Counted from the first letter of the stretch, positions 3,781 to 53,204 are shown. The stretch is DNA of 64,000 bases from an uncultured Gammaproteobacteria bacterium (GCA_964596525.1 CAZQUL010000001.1:1276312-1340311), one strand, 5' to 3'. Translations and numbers: made by a program. Notes: generated from the letters alone by a model not told the origin.

Positions 3781-5262
3781 TTAACTGCGTTTTTTGGACA
3801 CGTTGAACCCCAAATATTTGCCGCGCATCAAATGGGTCACCGCGTCCAAACACGGTACAGCCGAGAAAAAAATGAGCGATACCGGGAGTAAAATCCATTG
3901 CAGAATCATGAAAACGTAGCGGTGCGGCGGATGCGATTCGGGCCGTTTGGGCAGCATGAGAACGCTCAAAATCGCCGAAACGAAGAGGCCGATCATAGCA
4001 ATCGTCATAAGGATCTGCAGTACGTAGGGCGTGGTAAAAAATAGGAGTGTTTGGCGGAGTTCGTAATCAGCAAAGACGAGTGGCAGGCGTCCCATGATGG
4101 TAATGAAAATAGCTACCACAGCCCAACTCCATTTGCCTTCGAGTTCATGAAAAAAGAGCACGGCTTTTTTGTGCCACGGAATGAGTGGTCGGATTTTGAA
4201 CTGCTGCCAGAGATACGGGATATGTTCTACACCCCAGGCCCAGCGCCGCTGTTGATAATACAGGTTTTTGAGGCTTTTGCCGATCGTATCATCATGCACC
4301 GTATCCATGGAAACCGGGATGTAGAGCGGTGTCACTTCGTAATCGCCGTTGTAGTGGAGCCAGCACTGGAAAAATATGCGCGAATCCTCGCTTACGATGG
4401 CTTTGGCATGACCACCCACATCGACGAGCGCTTTAAAACTCATGCTGTGCGACGAAAAGGTGACGAGCGTATCGAGCCGCGCCAGACTGAACATCATCCA
4501 AAACGTGGTACCAAAAGCCATAATACGCAAAATAGCGTGCGAATCCCACAAATTGTTATTGTAGAGCGTCACCGGCTGAAACGAACTACGCGTCGGATTG
4601 GGATGCTTAAGGTACATATACTGGAGATGCGCCAGGTATTCAGGGTGCACTACAGTATCGACATCGAACATGGAGACGATGATGCGCTCGTAGGCCCAAC
4701 CATGCTGATCGGCATAGCGCCTGAATTCTTTTTCGGCATGATGGAGGTTTGAACCTTTGCCAGGAATTTCATCGGGCAGGCTGGCCGGATGGGTGTAAAA
4801 CAGCAGATCTTTAAACACACCAGCATAAGCACGCTCGATATCACGAGAAAGCGCTTGCCAGTGAGTCATCTGTCGTTCTTCACCCGAAATAACGACCGTA
4901 AGTTCGCGAGCCGGAAACGTCGAGGCTAGTAGCGCGTTAAGCGTGGCACTCAAAACCGCAAAGCTTTCGTTATATACCGGAAGAAAAACCACGTTATGCG
5001 TTTCTTTCCAACGCGGAAATTCCTGCTTTAAACGTTCAAACCACGCAACGCCGACCGCCTGCCGGAAGCGGCGCCATGACACGAGAACATACAGAGAAAA
5101 ATATACCACCCGCAGCACCCAATAGATGTCAAAAACGATCACCACGTACATCATGGCGAGCGGCGCGAAATAGGAAAGCGCCACACTCCCGATGAGTGTC
5201 GCCCAAATGAGTGCACCAGGCATGATTTCGTAAAGTCGGTAACGTTGATAATTCGTCAGCAT
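3781..5262 (-). CDS. family 2 glycosyltransferase, integral membrane (processive/cellulose-synthase-like)
   Basis: 493 aa; multiple TM helices flank a cytoplasmic GT-A domain (VVFLPVYNES...DVDTVVHPEYL..., with a QQRRW-like motif QQRRWAWG). Confidence 0.7.
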   Translation of the reverse strand: MLTNYQRYRLYEIMPGALIWATLIGSVALSYFAPLAMMYVVIVFDIYWVLRVVYFSLYVLVSWRRFRQAVGVAWFERLKQEFPRWKETHNVVFLPVYNESFAVLSATLNALLASTFPARELTVVISGEERQMTHWQALSRDIERAYAGVFKDLLFYTHPASLPDEIPGKGSNLHHAEKEFRRYADQHGWAYERIIVSMFDVDTVVHPEYLAHLQYMYLKHPNPTRSSFQPVTLYNNNLWDSHAILRIMAFGTTFWMMFSLARLDTLVTFSSHSMSFKALVDVGGHAKAIVSEDSRIFFQCWLHYNGDYEVTPLYIPVSMDTVHDDTIGKSLKNLYYQQRRWAWGVEHIPYLWQQFKIRPLIPWHKKAVLFFHELEGKWSWAVVAIFITIMGRLPLVFADYELRQTLLFFTTPYVLQILMTIAMIGLFVSAILSVLMLPKRPESHPPHRYVFMILQWILLPVSLIFFSAVPCLDAVTHLMRGKYLGFNVSKKRS

Positions 5263-5264
5263 AA

Positions 5265-5654
5265 TTAGTTCTCTCGAGGTTTGAGGCGGATGTTAGGCAT
5301 GCCGCTATAACGCGCCACGAGCGGTTTTCCGATCGTTGCCTTTTTAAGGCGTTCGATGGTTTGTTCTCCCAGCTCTTCTTCGGTGAGGGATTCGACAGGA
5401 ATGCGGTACGCCATGCCAAGCGTATTGGCAATCGTCGTCAAAACACGCGTCGTGGTAAATGACCCCCGTTCCAAACCGACCGCAACACCTTTGATGTCTT
5501 TTAAAGAAAGACCGACTGTCTCGAGCCAAGCAACGAGTTCAGCAAGAACGGCCGCGCTTTTTTTGCCGGCAAAAAAATGCGCCTTTCTTTCGTTGCTATC
5601 AAAGGCGACAAAACGTACCCCCTCCGGTAACTCTGGAATAAAAGCAAGATACAT
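5265..5654 (-). CDS. tsaB: minimal TsaB/YeaZ-like protein (tRNA t6A biosynthesis partner), truncated relative to canonical TsaB
   Basis: 129 aa; GLSLKDIKGVAVGLERGSFTTTRVLTTIANTLGMAYRIPV matches the TsaB core (dl.aiaVg.GPGSFTGvRig...A..l..P). Confidence 0.45.
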   Translation of the reverse strand: MYLAFIPELPEGVRFVAFDSNERKAHFFAGKKSAAVLAELVAWLETVGLSLKDIKGVAVGLERGSFTTTRVLTTIANTLGMAYRIPVESLTEEELGEQTIERLKKATIGKPLVARYSGMPNIRLKPREN

Positions 5655-5656
5655 AG

Positions 5657-6253
5657 TTACGATTCAGCACCGCTTGACGGGGCAGGTTTGCGATACACGA
5701 TAATATGTTTGTGAGCGAAAACAGAGCGAACGAACACATCCCCCAGATCCTGGCGCTCAGAAAGTTCGTTTGAAGTTATAAACGTATAACGGAGCGGTCG
5801 GCCAATCGCAGCTTCGGCCTCCGCGATGATCGTCTCGACGGGCGCAGCGTAGACATTACCAACAATCATGAGATCGATCGGCGCTTCATCATCCCCCATA
5901 AAAAAACCACTCACCACCAACTCGTGCACATCACCGCCCTCGGCGACAATACGGTTGAAGTAATCCTTATATTCCACGATGCGCGCTTTGGCGATAAGGC
6001 TTGCCAAATCATCGGCCAAAAAATGATCCACGCTCAGGCAGTAAAACTTTTGTTCACCTCGTTCAGCGCCATCGTTTTGCACCACCTGAAGAATGCCTAA
6101 ACGCTCGAGATTAGCCAATTCGCGGCGCACCGCATTGAGCTGGATATCAATAAGTCGGGCCATTTCCCGCACGTAAAAAGAACGTTCTGGATAGCGAAAA
6201 AAGAGCGTTAACAGTTTAACGCGGGTTTTCGAGCCAAAAAAATGCTCCAACAT
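5657..6253 (-). CDS. winged-helix transcriptional regulator with an uncharacterised C-terminal domain
   Basis: The ORF runs to 6337 but the first 28 residues look non-native; start placed at MLEHFFGSKTRVKLLTLFFRYPERSFYVREMARLIDIQLNAVRRELANLERLGIL (ArsR/MarR-like wHTH). The start is uncertain. Confidence 0.5.
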   Translation of the reverse strand: MLEHFFGSKTRVKLLTLFFRYPERSFYVREMARLIDIQLNAVRRELANLERLGILQVVQNDGAERGEQKFYCLSVDHFLADDLASLIAKARIVEYKDYFNRIVAEGGDVHELVVSGFFMGDDEAPIDLMIVGNVYAAPVETIIAEAEAAIGRPLRYTFITSNELSERQDLGDVFVRSVFAHKHIIVYRKPAPSSGAES

Positions 6254-10679: not shown

Positions 10680-10756
10680 TATATCTCGGAGTGGTCAATT
10701 TGATTGGGTCTTTTTAAAGAACCTTGAGGCAGGTTCTACGATCACTCACGAGCATT

Positions 10757-10785
10757 ATATTACCATACTTTTACGACCTTGTCAA
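10757..10785 (-). promoter_or_regulatory. sigma70-type promoter P2, near-duplicate of P1 about 105 bp upstream
   Basis: Reverse complement reads TTGACA-aggtcgtaaaagtatgg(17)-TAATAT; the surrounding roughly 35 nt is about 80% identical to P1. Confidence 0.5.
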
Positions 10786-10855
10786 GAGTTGCTCAAAGAT
10801 AGCAAAACTAAGCGGAATTTCTGGCAGCGCTCTTAAAATTCCGCGCAATAAATGA

Positions 10856-10885
10856 GAAAAGGCCTTAGGAAGGCCTCTTTTCTCT
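10856..10885 (-). terminator. rho-independent terminator of the pyrH-like gene
   Basis: GAGAAAAGGCCTT-agg-AAGGCCTCTTTTCTC, with a T-rich tract on the minus strand. Confidence 0.55.
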
Positions 10886-10911
10886 TACCGGCTCTAGAAT
10901 AGAAAAATGAT

Positions 10912-11604
10912 TTAACCTAATGTGGTACCGCGGTATTTCTTTCCATGAAGCACTTTTTTAATCTGTTCTATATCAGTTCCTTTTACAAAGTGAACCTTAA
11001 GCTTAAGGCGCTCGGCCAAGCGTGTCGCCACCGGGTCAAACGGCGCACTCATACCCGGAGTCCACGTGTCGCCAACAATACCGCGATATTCTTTCCAGGT
11101 AAGGGCTTCAAAGCGTTTAGCGTCGGGGTTTATGCGCGGATCGCTGTCGCATACGTAATCAATATTAGAAAGATTAATGAGCTCGAGCGCGCCAAAATGC
11201 TTAGCAAGCAGAACAGCATCGGTGTCGGTTGAACAACCCGGTTTCCATCCCGCGGCAATAATGATCGGCTTGGCCGTGGCAATTTTCTTGGTGGGGTTGG
11301 TAACAACAAGGGGGTACGCGAGCTTACCAAAGAGCATGCGTACGAACTCAGCGTTAAAGATGGTGGTGTGGATACCTAACCAATCGAGATCGGTGTTGGT
11401 CGTGGTCGGGATGGTTTCTTTAAGCGCTTGCTGATAGTGGCGGCAGGTCGCTCCCCCGCCGACCGTCAGGATGAACCGGCGGCCTTTTTTAACTTCTGCC
11501 ATAATGAGCGCGCGGAACTTCTTGAGGAAGGGAACATCAAAACCCGTTTTGGGAATAATGATGGAACCTCCGACAGAAAGGATGGTGTACTTAGTGGAAG
11601 GCAT
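10912..11604 (-). CDS. pyrH: amino-acid-kinase-fold uridylate (UMP) kinase, archaeal-type PyrH-like
   Basis: 230 aa; ILSVGGSII...TVGGG...DLDWLGIHTT...AAGWKPGCSTDTDAVLLA...NIDYVCDSDP: glycine-rich nucleotide-binding blocks of the AAK/UMPK family. Confidence 0.55.
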   Translation of the reverse strand: MPSTKYTILSVGGSIIIPKTGFDVPFLKKFRALIMAEVKKGRRFILTVGGGATCRHYQQALKETIPTTTNTDLDWLGIHTTIFNAEFVRMLFGKLAYPLVVTNPTKKIATAKPIIIAAGWKPGCSTDTDAVLLAKHFGALELINLSNIDYVCDSDPRINPDAKRFEALTWKEYRGIVGDTWTPGMSAPFDPVATRLAERLKLKVHFVKGTDIEQIKKVLHGKKYRGTTLG

Positions 11605-30651: not shown

Positions 30652-30660
30652 ATGGATATG

Positions 30661-30744
30661 TGCCCAGGAGAGGATTCGAACCTCCATTCCCTTACGAGAG
30701 CTACCACCTCAAGGTAGTGCGTCTACCAATTTCGCCACCTGGGC
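30661..30744 (-). tRNA. tRNA-Leu (anticodon GAG), CCA not encoded
   Basis: Minus strand GCCCAGGTGGCGAAATTGGTAGACGC...CTTGAGGTGGTAG...GGTTCGAATCCTCTCCTGGGCA; type II long variable arm; anticodon loop cTTGAGgt. Confidence 0.85.
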
Positions 30745-30758
30745 ATGTTGAGTTGTAT

Positions 30759-30861
30759 TGTCATTGCGAGCGGCAGCGAAGCAATCCCCTTGATTCCAGA
30801 GCTCTTTCTGACATCGAAGGGATTGCTTCGTCAGTCGTCTAACTCCTTCCTCGCAATGACA
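30759..30861. repeat. about 100-bp palindromic (MITE-like) element, copy 1
   Basis: Outer arms TGTCATTGCGAG / CTCGCAATGACA and inner arms GAAGCAATCCC / GGGATTGCTTC; shares its termini with the element at 52759-52857. Confidence 0.55.
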
Positions 30862-30889
30862 CATTTTACAAAGGGCTGTTCTGCGCTTT

Positions 30890-31651
30890 TTAAAATTTTC
30901 TTTCCTTCCCGACGATCATGTCGATTTTGGGGGCGGCCATGCGAATGACGAGGCGCGTTTCTTTGGATGTGCGCCCGTCGGTTTCAACCGTGAACGGGTT
31001 ATGGCCGATGACCTTCATTTCTTTGAACGGAAACATGCTGGCCTCCTCCTTGGTATACCCCCACCACCGCTTCTTTGTCAACGGTTCAAGATACGCTTCG
31101 AGGCGTCCATCCTGTGGATGAACCGCGTAGGGCAACGGAGCAAGGAGCTGGGCTGGCTGGAACGGCTTAATGTTGCAGACCACCACTTCGAGCAAATCGT
31201 GCGTTGTGATTTTGAACCGTTCGTCGTAGACCACCTGCACTTTGGCCGGCGGAATGCGGATCTGGCCGATGAAGTAGCGATTGTTGACCTGGCCCACGTC
31301 GAGCGGCGTACGGCGGCGGCGCGAGAGCACCATGCACGAGTCGGGTCCGACGGGAATACCGAGGATGGAAGCGATAGAGAGTTCCTTGCCAAGCGGCAAG
31401 TAGCCGAAGGTGCACGGTACGTCGGCGGCGTTGGCGAGGATCTGGCCGAACGTGGTGTCGTCACCTACGATGACGATGGTTTTGGCACCGCGGCGCAGTT
31501 CGTCCACGATCATGCCTTTAACGTCGGAGTAGTTCACGACACGCAGCACTTTACCAGAAAGACCCAAATCGGTCAAACGAACTTCAAGCGCCCGGAGTAC
31601 GGCCGCGTTACTGCCCTGACGCACAAAATTGTCGTACAGGTAAACGTACAT
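30890..31651 (-). CDS. DAGK_cat-family lipid kinase (YegS/BmrU-like)
   Basis: Start at MYVYLYDNF...; GDDTTFGQILANAADVPCTFGYLPLG corresponds to the GGDGT...lPlGtgN lipid-kinase signature. Confidence 0.6.
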   Translation of the reverse strand: MYVYLYDNFVRQGSNAAVLRALEVRLTDLGLSGKVLRVVNYSDVKGMIVDELRRGAKTIVIVGDDTTFGQILANAADVPCTFGYLPLGKELSIASILGIPVGPDSCMVLSRRRRTPLDVGQVNNRYFIGQIRIPPAKVQVVYDERFKITTHDLLEVVVCNIKPFQPAQLLAPLPYAVHPQDGRLEAYLEPLTKKRWWGYTKEEASMFPFKEMKVIGHNPFTVETDGRTSKETRLVIRMAAPKIDMIVGKERKF

Positions 31652-31670
31652 ACTCCCCCGCGCGGGCGTC

Positions 31671-32162
31671 TTATTCGGCACCCATCATGCCGGACGTTTC
31701 TTCGACCGGAGCGGATTTTTTGGAACGGGTTGTGCGGGCAGGCTTGGGAGTTTCAAGACCTTCGACACCGGTCATACTGACCTTACCGTAGAGCACGGCG
31801 CCTGGTTCGACCGAGAGCGTTTCCACTTCCACATCGCCGATGATGCGACCCGTAGAGAGAAGTTCGAGCGAACCCATGATCTTCATGTTACCGCGCACCT
31901 CGCCCGAAATTTTGGCCGTGCCGGCTTGGACATTGGCGAAGATTTTGGCACCGGTTTCTACCAAGAGAAGTTTGGAGGTATATACCGTACCGGTCACCGA
32001 GCCTTTGACGATAATGTCGCCCTCGGAAGAAAAATCGCCTTCGACGTGCACCGAAGGACCGACGACCGTTTCGACGGTGTCGTCGTTCTCGACGCGTTCG
32101 TAGGCGGCTTCGTACTGTTCAGCCGGTGGCTGCGGGGCAGGTTTGGCTTTTTGGAAGATCAT
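31671..32162 (-). CDS. bactofilin-family cytoskeletal protein
   Basis: Start at MIFQKAKPAP...; repetitive beta-helical core (VHVEGDFSSEGDIIVKGSVTGTVYTSKLLLVETGAKIFANVQAGTAKISGEVRGNMKIMGSLELLSTGRIIGDVEV). Confidence 0.7.
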   Translation of the reverse strand: MIFQKAKPAPQPPAEQYEAAYERVENDDTVETVVGPSVHVEGDFSSEGDIIVKGSVTGTVYTSKLLLVETGAKIFANVQAGTAKISGEVRGNMKIMGSLELLSTGRIIGDVEVETLSVEPGAVLYGKVSMTGVEGLETPKPARTTRSKKSAPVEETSGMMGAE

Positions 32163-33842: not shown

Positions 33843-33984
33843 AGAGGTAAAGTATGGTGTTCATGTAAAGAATTTCTTTGATTAAAGCATATTTTAAGGA
33901 AAAACGCTAGACACGCACTTATCATTGCGAGCCGGCAGGCAGACTTGCGATGATGGGTATATAAAACATCCATCTCCTTCATCT

Positions 33985-44732: not shown

Positions 44733-44815
44733 GAGAGACCTTAGACCTGAGACCCTAGACCTTAGGATACTTGTAATTCTAAGGTCTGAGGTCTAATATC
44801 TAATATCTTAAGGAT

Positions 44816-51026: not shown

Positions 51027-52730
51027 TTACATTTCTGCTACGGTCTCGATCGTGAGAACGTCCAAGGCCGTGACAAGTACCGTTCTAACCGCTCCGGCGA
51101 GGGTAAGCCGGGCTTTCGAAAGCGCTTTCTCAGAACCGAGAATGGGGCACTGGGCATACCAGTCATTGAAGGCTTGGGCGAGATCGAAGCAGTATTTAGC
51201 GACGACCGAGGGGTTGTAAGCAAGAAAGGCCTTCTCGAGGATATCCGGAAAACTCGAAAGCATGAGGGCAAGCCTCTTTTCGGTCGGGGCAGAGAGCAAA
51301 TCAAGGTTAGAATTTTCCAGCGAAGACGTTTCGGACTGAGCTTTGCGGAAGATACTATTGATGCGCGCGACGGAATATAAGATGTAAGGCGCACTCATCC
51401 CTTCGAAACTGACCGCCTCGTCGAGATTGAACACGATATTCTTGGCAGCTTCGTGTTTTTGCATGTTGTATTTGAGAACGGCCAACGTTAGCTTGAGGGT
51501 CGTGCTCTGGATTTTTTCTTCCGGCCAGTCAGCATGACGGGCGGTCATTTCATGCTTGAGACGCTCAAAAACCTGATCTCGGAGATCCTCGTATAAAATG
51601 ACGGTGCCTGCGCGTGAGGACATCTTGCCTTCAGGGAGCATGACAAGGCCGTAGCTCACATGCGTCATTTTTTTGTTGAATCCGGCGAGCTCGAGGATTT
51701 TGAAGAGCTGCTTGAATTGGAAATTCTGCTCGAGTCCGGTGATACAGATGCTTTCGGTAATATCGTAACGCGCGAATTTTTCTTCGGCGAGCGCCAAATC
51801 GCTCGTGATATAAAGACCGGCACCGGTCGACTTGCGCAAGAGAACGGTATCCAACTTATAGGCGGAAAGATCCGCAATGATCGCCCCCCGCTCCCCGACC
51901 GTGGCGATGCCTTTAGCGAGAAGTTCGTCGACGACCTGCTGTCCGCGGTCCTTGAGATCGCTTTCAAAAAAAACCCTGGCATGCTCGATCGCGAGCTCGG
52001 CATTGAGGCGTTTGAATCCTTCCAAACTCCAGGCGCGGGTCTCTTCAAAGAGCGCAAAAACCGACGGATCGCGCGCTTCGAGTTTAAGTTGCAGATCATC
52101 CACCTCACCCTGACACTCCGGATGATCTTTGAGATAATTATTAGCTTCGGCGTACACCTGCCCGAGCCAGCGCTGTTTATTTTCGGGTGGTGTTTCGCCA
52201 CCATGGAATTTACGGAGTCCCCAGAGGCATTTGACCACGTGGGCGCCGAAATCGTTCAGATAGTTGACCGGCGTCACGCCGTAACCGGCCTTGGCGAACA
52301 GTTTGACAAGCGTATTGCCGATACAGACGTTGCGCAAATGGCCGATGTGGAATTCTTTGTGGGTATTATTCGACGGATACTCGATGAGAACGTTTGCCGG
52401 ATTCTCAAGGTGTTTTGATCCGAATCGTTCGCCGCTTTGAGCGATCTCGCCAAGCACGATCTGCGCTACTTTTCCGGCATTAAACGTGAAATTTAAAAAT
52501 GGGCCAGCAGATGAAACAGTCTCCACTAGACCGCCAATCAAGCCTTGCGCCGTACGAGCAAGTTCACTCGCAACCAGAGCGGGGTTTTTCCCCTGCTTCT
52601 TAGCCAGCTCAAAACAAGGAATAGCCACATCCCCCATCTCAGGATTGGGCGGCGTGGAACAGGGAGTGTCGGAAGGCAAGTTGAGAGCGGTAAGAAATTT
52701 CTTGAGTTCGTTATCGAGTACAGGAGACAT
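51027..52730 (-). CDS. argS: arginyl-tRNA synthetase
   Basis: 567 aa; class I HIGH motif (SNNTHKEFHIGHLRN), Add-1 N-terminal domain, DALR C-terminal domain. Confidence 0.9.
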   Translation of the reverse strand: MSPVLDNELKKFLTALNLPSDTPCSTPPNPEMGDVAIPCFELAKKQGKNPALVASELARTAQGLIGGLVETVSSAGPFLNFTFNAGKVAQIVLGEIAQSGERFGSKHLENPANVLIEYPSNNTHKEFHIGHLRNVCIGNTLVKLFAKAGYGVTPVNYLNDFGAHVVKCLWGLRKFHGGETPPENKQRWLGQVYAEANNYLKDHPECQGEVDDLQLKLEARDPSVFALFEETRAWSLEGFKRLNAELAIEHARVFFESDLKDRGQQVVDELLAKGIATVGERGAIIADLSAYKLDTVLLRKSTGAGLYITSDLALAEEKFARYDITESICITGLEQNFQFKQLFKILELAGFNKKMTHVSYGLVMLPEGKMSSRAGTVILYEDLRDQVFERLKHEMTARHADWPEEKIQSTTLKLTLAVLKYNMQKHEAAKNIVFNLDEAVSFEGMSAPYILYSVARINSIFRKAQSETSSLENSNLDLLSAPTEKRLALMLSSFPDILEKAFLAYNPSVVAKYCFDLAQAFNDWYAQCPILGSEKALSKARLTLAGAVRTVLVTALDVLTIETVAEM

Positions 52731-52758
52731 ATTTTAATATAATGTCTTTGCGAGGAGC

Positions 52759-52857
52759 GTAGCGACGAAGCCCGTCCGCCATGGCAGCAAGGCGTGCCGG
52801 GCGGGCTTCATCGCTCATTCTTCGCTCCTCGCAAAGACATATTTATTGACATGAACG
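52759..52857. repeat. about 100-bp palindromic (MITE-like) element, copy 2
   Basis: 18-bp perfect terminal inverted repeat ATGTCTTTGCGAGGAGCG / CGCTCCTCGCAAAGACAT with an imperfectly palindromic interior; termini match copy 1 (TGTCWTTGCGAG...CTCGCAAWGACA). Confidence 0.55.
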
Positions 52858-52895: not shown

Positions 52896-53204
52896 ATGAG
52901 TTCTTTACTCAACGCGATCGAGAGCCGATACCTTGACCGACGCGTCGGCGAGGAAACGGTGTTTGAAGATTATTCTCTTGTCAAGAGCGGCGATAAACTG
53001 GTAGTGGTTGTACATAGCTATAATGCCATTTCTGAAGCGGAATTCTGGGAATGGTACCAGATGAACGAGGCTCTTGGAAAACCGTGGCCACCCGTGGGCG
53101 CTGCGCGCGCCCAGGTTTATTTCAACGGCGTCTGCGAAGTTCCACATGCCGTCGAGAAGCTCTTGGAGCACGGGCAGCTCGTCGGCCGCTTTCCACCAGA
53201 GTAA
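52896..53204 (+). CDS. hypothetical protein
   Basis: 102 aa; no TM helices; no motif recognised. Confidence 0.4.
   Translation: MSSLLNAIESRYLDRRVGEETVFEDYSLVKSGDKLVVVVHSYNAISEAEFWEWYQMNEALGKPWPPVGAARAQVYFNGVCEVPHAVEKLLEHGQLVGRFPPE

Follow-up and report, generated by a model that had tools for sequence, protein, structure and literature searches.

Element A, a palindrome in the 64-kb stretch of DNA analysed here (the window; 64,000 nt, GCA_964596525.1, CAZQUL010000001.1:1276312-1340311), is an inverted doublet of two repetitive extragenic palindromic (REP) units. It belongs to a widespread superfamily of REPs with YGTC heads, newly seen here in a genome of the candidate phyla radiation (CPR), and it shows clear insertion polymorphism among relatives of the window lineage, which is Candidatus Magasanikbacteria (Patescibacteria/CPR). 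The family lies within or beside the superfamily of CGTC-tagged REPs. Our reading, taken as a whole, is that A is non-coding selfish DNA, a REP doublet moved by a GIY-YIG nuclease acting in trans, and we give it a probability of about 0.6. That A is a member of a REP-doublet family and arose by insertion can be held with high confidence.

The sequence of A, its 12-bp perfect outer arms (TGTCATTGCGAG/CTCGCAATGACA) and its inner arms (GAAGCAATCCC/GGGATTGCTTC) are exactly as in a preliminary description of the window. The inner arms can be extended to 24 nt at 83% complementarity, and the fold stands out from those of dinucleotide shuffles (z = -8.5/-7.4 as RNA, -6.7/-7.2 as DNA). The same description placed A 3' of tRNA-Leu, but this tRNA gene is on the minus strand and A is upstream (5') of it, by 14 nt, and 28 nt past the stop codon of a DAGK-like gene. 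The forward orientation of A, that of its long arm, is the minus strand, as for these two neighbours. In unit A1 the ATTGC/GCAAT basal stem is intact and the apical part folds poorly, and in the minimum-energy DNA fold of unit A2 both ATTGC/GCAAT and GC/GC are paired.

A and a second element of the window, B, are members of a genuine family and not chance hairpins. The covariance model was built from 36 elements (34 copies from viral contigs, the plasmid copy of Novosphingobium aromaticivorans, and A itself), with B excluded. It gives 66.5 bits to A, a member of the training set, and 40.1 bits to B (E = 1.7e-8), and finds nothing else in the 64 kb beyond a marginal match at 33920-33955. Canonical half-units occur twice in the window, as the two halves of A, with 0.02 expected; the terminal 11-mer, with one mismatch allowed, occurs 6 times with 3.0 expected and is not enriched when taken alone.

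Copies elsewhere, in viral contigs, plasmids and relatives, run into the hundreds and bear out the multi-copy, diverged family with conserved inverted termini that had been proposed from the two window elements. In viral contigs the pattern TTGCGAG-N55-85-CTCGCAAWGAC matches at least 120 stretches, and among the matches listed there are 92-104 distinct elements of 69-123 bp. BLAST on plasmids returned full-length copies in alpha- and gammaproteobacterial plasmids of Novosphingobium, Methylosinus, Methylocystis and Halomonas, including one between two genes of a dioxygenase operon (N. aromaticivorans pNL2, 154842-154924); N. resinovorum pSA1 has 14 matching places. Other Magasanikbacteria also carry copies (loci L140, L133, L275, L281 and L289), the tips of CPR copies are TGTC...GACA, and doublets with ATTCT, ATCCC, ATTCC and ATTTC stems occur in related CPR genomes. 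Copies are found in both orientations and inside open reading frames (ORFs). Scans of the element translations against Pfam and PHROGs gave no match, and a full-text literature search for the terminus sequences returned unrelated primers only and no described element.

The conserved termini are real, but they are not plain terminal inverted repeats: they form the outer half of each of two REP hairpin units that fold on themselves. An architecture common to 52 oriented elements runs from (C/T)GTCATTGCGAG through a variable small hairpin, often GAGCGAAGCGAC, to CGAAGCAATCC(AG), a variable spacer of 15-35 nt, (CT)GGATTGCTTCG, CTTCG and CTCGCAATGAC(G/A), and A and B likewise fold as long hairpins. 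The family consensus ends with ...GCAATCCAG; the tails observed are CCA, CCC or CTC (CCC in A), each paired, in doublets, with the opposite half. The inverted repeat reaches exactly one base past the 11-mer, as C..G in 51 and as T..A in 23 of 94 elements. This terminal pair covaries (CG 20, UA 7, UG 3), as do the apical side hairpin and the extension of the inner stem, with values that none of 500 shuffles matched.

Sister subtypes built on the same plan were recovered by a scan for GTCATYCTGAR...YTCAGRATGAC, and their halves fold alone as AT(Y)CT-GA-GC-GAA-GC-GA-AG(R)AT. Head and inner box each contain a variable base, and in 82/82 halves (41 elements) these two bases are complementary within the half. 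Only 19/41 elements combine two halves of one type; the other 22 are heterodimers, each internally consistent. There are at least seven variants of the basal stem, all complementary (ATTGC, ATCCT, ATTCT, ATTTC, ATCTC, ATTCC and ATCCC), the last four of them seen in CPR copies. Because of this pairing within halves and of the complementary stem variants, the selected unit is, on comparative evidence, a REP-type hairpin of about 30-45 nt, and the element of about 100 bp is a tail-to-tail inverted doublet of such units. The plan of the unit is a YGTC head, a 5-bp basal stem starting from AT, a tandem G.A, a small apical hairpin (often a GCGAAGC mini-hairpin) and a C-rich tail. Unpaired units, or singlets, account for 99/312 heads.

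Some arrangements of copies are peculiar. Two elements of one viral contig (L067, 4145-4227 and 11957-12039) have equal asymmetric arms and loops that are mutually reverse complementary at ~13/17 positions by eye, which suggests loop inversion through recombination within the inner stem. Tandem arrays of up to five doublets with spacers of ~12 bp (L224 8519-8969, L120 2990-3195 and L048 1122-1335) are reminiscent of clusters of bacterial interspersed mosaic elements (BIMEs) or of REPINs, the REP doublets that form hairpins.

Orthologous sites reveal insertion. At the A site we gathered 80 loci from relatives (609 kb) and scanned 30 orthologous loci for tRNAs; the synteny of the DAGK-like gene, whose protein is 66% identical (aa) to that of its best relative, with tRNA-Leu(GAG) is kept in nearly all 30. 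Wherever synteny can be read, the relatives have no element at this site; their spacers are mostly of 8-50 bp and a few of ~100-150 bp (54 bp in the closest relative). In the 609 kb, the motif scan and the covariance model found two copies, both in L140, and one further doublet, of another subtype, is in L133. The L140 copies (5278-5390 and 5962-6050) fill two spacers of one operon, whose window equivalents measure 6 and 12 bp, and the A-site spacer of L140 has 8 bp. Presence and absence are thus reciprocal.

The region of B adds to this picture. The genes tyrS and argS are 3-30 bp apart in most relatives, without any element, whereas in the window ~500 bp lie between them, made of an orphan ORF and B. 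Since the two genes are adjacent in most relatives, this segment has the look of an insertion. In L275 a doublet of another subtype precedes argS by 15 bp. Within argS itself, doublets of two subtypes are inserted in-frame in the same loop of the ArgRS N-terminal domain (L281 2656-2789, equal to L273 223-356, and L289 2683-2765), where they add ~24-38 residues; these are groundwater CPR genomes and the site is orthologous to about position 52540 of the window. L269 retains a shorter remnant in argS at ~2690, and the closest relatives, L283 and L285, are without insertion. The sites empty in relatives, those filled only in relatives and the in-frame copies in argS together indicate insertion. 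The check for empty sites suggested in the preliminary description thus gave a positive answer, and the one for target-site duplications a negative one, as duplications of 2-8 bp, at four boundary offsets, were no more frequent than expected by chance. A search for the empty-site allele of A in metagenomes had 0 matches. As a family, these elements prefer tight intergenic spacers and sometimes insert in-frame in genes.

In sister subtypes, outward-facing REP units enclose a gene encoding a GIY-YIG nuclease. This gene surfaced when all loci were searched with a small GIY-YIG protein: the viral locus L251 has an ORF of ~100 aa (10847-11218, minus strand) flanked on one side by a REP doublet (10731-10819) and on the other by an inverted REP unit, heads outward. 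Searching the loci with the L251 protein as single query returned only itself; its homologues number 1969 at E<=1e-5, mostly on very short contigs. The product is a stand-alone GIY-YIG domain of ~95 aa (PF01541), similar to Slx1/YhbQ. In L251, L297 and L298 the order is TGTCATTCTGAG...REP, a leader of ~50 nt, the GIY-YIG ORF and an inverted REP with the stop codon. Two large chromosomal contigs have the full unit (TGTCATTCTGAGCGAAGCGAAGAATCTCTCTG, the ~50-nt leader, the ORF and CAGAGAGATTCTTCGCTTCGCTCAGAATGACA) in ~420 bp, and its ends are those of the short doublets of the ATTCT/ATCCT subtypes.

The proteins themselves bear the mark of the REPs. The C-terminus is ...LRSE* in 51 of the best 120 homologues (...RDSSLRSE* in 48), which corresponds to AGAGATTCTTCGCTTCGCTCAGAATGA, so that the stop codon falls within the REP head. 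Other homologues begin with VILSEAKNL, corresponding to GTCATTCTGAGCGAAGCGAAGAATCTC, and those of alphaproteobacterial type include MAGLVPAIH, corresponding to GTCATGGCCGGGCTTGTCCCGGCCATCCA. REP-derived residues were present in the called ORFs of 82/120 close homologues, 44/148 representatives of 50%-identity clusters and 24/120 homologues of alphaproteobacterial type, compared with 6/982 control ORFs. On plasmids, tblastn found homologues in A. lipoferum, S. meliloti, Neisseria and N. aromaticivorans, which are among the CGTC-REP hosts of Di Nocera et al. (PMC3733652). In 9/9 loci read, the gene has on both sides, heads outward, the YGTC-headed REPs (CGTC or TGTC) of its own lineage; the named hosts, which cover four phyla, are A. 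lipoferum, S. meliloti, N. gonorrhoeae (with dRS3-type REPs), N. aromaticivorans, Planktothrix (Cyanobacteriota) and Spirosoma (Bacteroidota). No paper in the literature searched combines GIY-YIG nucleases with REPs or describes flanking REP hairpins and dispersed short derivatives for such genes. One such locus, L301 (A. lipoferum AZO_p3, 255218-256090), has the GIY-YIG gene with REP doublets on both sides between sufB and sufC; it looks like an insertion into the suf operon of a cultured organism, and like a convenient experimental system.

The spacer between the DAGK-like gene and tRNA-Leu (window 30745-30890) is, in relatives, also an insertion hotspot for other sequences, which are found in L123 (4789-5431), L141 (4762-5418), L146 (4765-5173), L170, L200, L183 and L134. 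A LAGLIDADG ORF confirmed by Pfam occurs in L123 and a similar ORF in L141, and five loci have small GIY-YIG ORFs, identified by Pfam in L146 and by jackhmmer in the other four. Here, in the five relatives, it is other palindromes that flank the GIY-YIG genes. Partial duplicates of tRNA-Leu containing the palindrome CCTGCCTGCCGGCAGGCAGG accompany the genes of L146, L170 and L200, and the gene of L183 has hairpins of a different family on its two sides (~4830-4910 and 5270-5300; CCGTGCACCACAAGGGTGCACGG, CCATGTACCCTTGTGGTACATGG and CCATGAACCACAAGGGTTCATGG). The L183 arrangement hints at distinct flanking palindromes for other clades of GIY-YIG genes.

These observations can be assembled in a model. 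In the Magasanikbacteria lineage, A was inserted where the DAGK-like gene and tRNA-Leu were at first separated by a very short spacer, and its most likely mover is a Slx1/YhbQ-like GIY-YIG nuclease of ~95 aa acting in trans. Because the GIY-YIG gene lies between the same outward-facing REP units in sister subtypes, the doublets of ~100 bp look like MITE-like derivatives (MITE, miniature inverted-repeat transposable element), or empty homing sites, of the autonomous unit of ~420 bp. The REP hairpin or a cruciform would be recognised by the nuclease and nicked close to the YGTC head, with another element serving as the template for repair of the break. The structure specificity of the eukaryotic nuclease Slx1 (PMC1564403) fits hairpin or cruciform substrates. 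We infer catalysis, the cleavage site, the route of spread and the use of the nuclease by the ATTGCGAG subtype. The proposed link of the window elements to the GIY-YIG nuclease comes from the close similarity of the REP subtypes, and we give slightly less than even odds to the nuclease being the mover of the ATTGCGAG subtype.

Several points weigh against this model. GIY-YIG nucleases act without a covalent intermediate, so that the model has no ready account of how a nick ends in insertion at new sites that lack homology. It may also be that REPs just gather beside GIY-YIG genes, and Neisseria REPINs with the same head have been attributed to a Group 2 RAYT, or REP-associated tyrosine transposase (bioRxiv 10.1101/2021.07.10.451892). 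For the ATTGCGAG subtype itself, viral contigs had 0 matches to heads ~400 bp apart, the expected spacing; read-through tails of its type were found in 0/388 ORFs of GIY-YIG homologues; and plasmids rich in its doublets have no GIY-YIG gene near them. Homology searches of the 64-kb window for RayT and GIY-YIG proteins, in which the window ORFs were not all family-scanned, returned no GIY-YIG or transposase gene. As for the unit, the half-units of B fail the half-unit rule, and single half-unit hairpins are weak by nearest-neighbour energy (-2.7 to -3.7 kcal/mol, z not significant), so that the evidence for the units is comparative, from covariation, and not thermodynamic.

A broader proposition is more tentative still than the assignment of the nuclease to the ATTGCGAG subtype. 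YGTC-headed REPs, which occur in at least six phyla, on plasmids and on phage-like contigs, might be the non-autonomous partners of an unrecognised class of bacterial mobile elements whose only gene, set between two outward-facing REP hairpins, encodes a Slx1/YhbQ-like GIY-YIG nuclease of ~95 aa. Such a class would take in A, the published CGTC REPs, the dRS3-type repeats of Neisseria and RPE-like in-frame insertions (RPE, Rickettsia palindromic element), and its mobilising enzyme would be a structure-specific nuclease, not a transposase, that diversifies together with the REP subtype.

Comparison with known repeats places the family close to, and yet apart from, several of them. In CGTC-tagged REPs the head is CGTC, "changed to TGTC in many repeats", AT opens the stem and the tail is CCA; these repeats frequently form dimers, are found in several phyla, include Neisseria dRS3 and Rickettsia RPE-4 and RPE-6, and have "no dedicated transposase" (PMC3733652). 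The elements studied here share with them the YGTC head, the AT start (ATTGC/GCAAT in A), the C-rich tail, homo- and heterodimers, intragenic copies, presence in several phyla and the lack of an adjacent transposase gene. They differ in the stem, which in CGTC-tagged REPs is an uninterrupted one of 8-9 bp with a loop of 4-5 nt and here has five Watson-Crick pairs, a tandem G.A, at least two further pairs and a loop of 3-4 nt or a longer apical hairpin. The dimers of CGTC-tagged REPs are also mostly head-to-head, whereas the heads are outward here. The ATTGCGAG sequence is absent from the text and supplements of PMC3733652, and Novosphingobium also carries classical short CGTC REPs. The ATTGCGAG family is probably separate from the four published CGTC families and, given the interrupted stem, the outward heads and the classical REPs of Novosphingobium, we treat it as a new relative.

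The family resembles REPINs (PMC3116915) in having two inverted REPs with a less conserved spacer, a long hairpin or clover fold, a non-autonomous nature and singlets as remnants. Unlike REPINs, it is shared across phyla, plasmids and viral contigs, searches of the window and of 2.2 Mb of loci yielded no RAYT beyond two control loci, and the gene between its REPs, in sister subtypes, encodes a GIY-YIG nuclease. Rickettsia palindromic elements are also palindromes of ~100-150 bp inserted in-frame in housekeeping genes, as here in the ArgRS N-terminal domain of relatives; the likeness is one of behaviour as described, since host phylum and sequence differ. The MITE reading of the preliminary description holds in part. 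As in MITEs, short non-coding copies have inverted ends, shared with a longer gene-carrying unit (in the ATTCT/ATCCT subtypes), and empty sites exist; unlike in MITEs, there are no target-site duplications, and the parent encodes a minimal GIY-YIG nuclease and no known transposase. Finally, the ~95-aa stand-alone domain (PF01541) is like free-standing GIY-YIG homing endonucleases and Slx1-YhbQ proteins, but in homing endonucleases there are DNA-binding domains and the target is a single allele. A survey of the superfamily (Dunin-Horkawicz et al. 2006, PMC1564403) viewed the stand-alone Slx1-like proteins of prokaryotes as repair-related, with vertical inheritance.

A RAYT-based mechanism is the serious rival to mobilisation by the nuclease. 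A would then be a classical REPIN that moves in single-stranded form through a RAYT (HUH/Y1 transposase) whose gene lies elsewhere in the genome, with the GIY-YIG gene as a bystander or a second passenger. The family agrees with REPINs in being built of doublets, in its alternative clover fold and in having no target-site duplications (PMC3116915), and the REPIN assigned to the Group 2 RAYT in Neisseria, ATTCCCGCGCAGGCGGGAATC, has the same CGTC-AT...AT-CC layout (bioRxiv 10.1101/2021.07.10.451892). Yet tblastn and a two-sequence hidden Markov model find no RAYT in the window, nor in the 2.2 Mb of element-bearing loci with the exception of two control RAYT loci, and the RAYT of a Chloroflexota plasmid is flanked by GTAG REPs and not by the YGTC-headed family. 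Di Nocera et al. came across no transposase gene with CGTC REPs at its sides (PMC3733652). Furthermore, REPIN-RAYT systems are reported to be lineage-specific, vertically inherited and off plasmids (bioRxiv 10.1101/2021.07.10.451892), whereas the family described here crosses phyla and is on plasmids and viral contigs. We consider this explanation unlikely. Still less support can be given to a host-useful RNA or DNA hairpin (one that stabilises mRNA, guides its processing, terminates transcription or binds a protein) that selection and not mobility would maintain, a reading which we regard as improbable. The hairpins are indeed very stable, mostly just after genes, covary in their stems and show a modest co-directional excess (20 vs 8, with doublet orientation defined solely by the unequal apical hairpins). 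Against a host function, Rfam gives no match for the elements at gathering threshold or at E<=10 (only the tRNA reaches gathering, and the best other hit is mir-653, with 19.6 bits against a threshold of 77); the loci of A and B have 0 terminator-like sites or T-tracts, and no promoter-like site is tied to the elements. The strand-specific G.U test was also negative (14 G.T vs 22 A.C in stems), and about half of the copies of sister subtypes, being heterodimers, have a broken long hairpin. Copies are sporadic at orthologous loci (in the 609 kb, the two of L140 by the model and the L133 doublet), they occur in-frame in argS, and their spacers vary. A structured repeat-RNA family, the other option of the preliminary description, finds no support: there is neither an Rfam match nor a G.U excess, and copies occur in both orientations and inside ORFs.

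The remaining explanations have very little in their favour. A conventional MITE derived from an insertion sequence with a DDE transposase and TG...CA ends would account for terminal inverted repeats, a size of ~100 bp, intergenic location and the TGTC...GACA tips of CPR copies. We find it hard to credit, since target-site duplications (2-8 bp, four offsets) are at chance level, about half of the copies begin with CGTC and not TG, the constraint is within each half and not between the ends, and no transposase gene recurs nearby, the neighbours at viral loci being structural genes of phages or gene transfer agents. The idea of two unrelated terminator-like hairpins of chance resemblance can draw on the presence of only two clear copies in 64 kb and on the 11-mer, which alone is not enriched. 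Its probability is close to nil: it is refuted by the copies in viral contigs and by the match of the covariance model to B (E = 1.7e-8, outside the training set), copies elsewhere number in the hundreds, and neither hairpin has a T-tail. Two other candidates were rejected. Integron attC sites do not fit, as there are no RYYYAAC...GTTRRRY core sites, the ends are TGTCATTGCGAG/CTCGCAATGACA and copies are not in cassette arrays; an RNA gene or terminator does not fit for lack of an Rfam match, a T-tail or a strand signature.

B, the divergent member of the family, was described at first at 52759-52857, which is 17 bp off (see table), but it is indeed an element with near-identical termini and a shared core. 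Its ends are ATGTCTTTGCGAG...CTCGCAAAGACAT with a GACGAAGC core, or more fully ATGTCTTTGCGAGGAGCG...CGCTCCTCGCAAAGACAT, and its fold has z = -11.8 as RNA and -9.3 as DNA. It has TGTCTTTGCGAG heads and a GAGGAGCGTAGCGACGAAGC core, and the closing GCAAA box is absent from both halves, which leaves the long hairpin only. Both halves share derived changes, namely a TTTGC head without a partner box and the loss of the inner box; the different interior already noticed in B includes this loss of the inner GCAAT-type box. B-type GTCTTTGCGAG heads had 0 matches in viral contigs. B is a decayed or homogenised relative of A's family, in a divergent intergenic region beside the orphan ORF. Contigs of the same organism in Logan (SRR11567528) end inside these elements (L121 1-47 inside B, L204 1-30 inside A): the palindromes or their repetition break de Bruijn short-read assembly.

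The marginal match of the covariance model (36 nt, 16.4 bits, E = 0.04, DNA fold z = -1.3) may be a remnant of the family, or chance. Its loop, CCGGCAGGCAGA (window 33932-33943), resembles the palindrome CCTGCCTGCCGGCAGGCAGG, which occurs in the tRNA-like fragments beside GIY-YIG genes of L146, L170 and L200 and also in L131, L182 and L188. The longest inverted repeat of the window, included in the table, is unrelated to the REP family.

Table. Location of element A, its parts and other features in the window
Feature	Coordinates	Strand	Remarks
Element A	30759..30861	-	103 bp; two inverted REP units joined tail to tail, ATTGCGAG subtype
REP unit A1	30819..30861	-	TGTC head, ATTGC, GAG + degenerate 19-nt apical segment, CGAA, GCAAT, CCC tail
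REP unit A2	30759..30788	+	TGTC-ATTGC-GA-GC-GGCA-GC-GA-A-GCAAT-CCC
Variable spacer (loop) of A	30789..30818	.	partly self-complementary; spacers vary between family members
tRNA-Leu(GAG)	30660-30744	-	ARAGORN, Rfam
DAGK-like gene	30890-31681	-	263 aa
Mini-hairpin or remnant	33920..33955	+	tATCATTGCGAG-ccggcaggcaga-CTTGCGATGATg; between LysW-like Zn-ribbon gene and PALP gene
Longest inverted repeat	44736-44808		33-nt arms, 76% complementarity; AGACCT/TAGACCT-like short repeats
Element B	52742-52840	+	99-bp divergent family member; 12 bp upstream of argS start (52730, minus strand)
Orphan ORF	52896-53204	+	102 aa; no Pfam match; in the ~500-bp tyrS-argS segment with B

Overall, the most interesting outcome of this work is the consistent association of a GIY-YIG gene with outward-facing REPs. 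REPs are among the most abundant bacterial repeats and, for the CGTC-tagged half of them, the literature knows no dedicated enzyme (PMC3733652). If the GIY-YIG/REP unit is real, it would provide a testable candidate enzyme for CGTC-type REPs. Thousands of genes now annotated as "GIY-YIG nuclease family protein" or "putative endonuclease" would then have to be reclassified as genes of selfish elements, and many spurious ends of annotated ORFs (...RDSSLRSE, VILSEAKNL, LRFARND, MAGLVPAIH) would be explained. For the biology of CPR bacteria, the finding means that such elements are active even in reduced genomes whose spacers have a few to a few tens of bp, to the point of being inserted in-frame in an aminoacyl-tRNA synthetase gene.

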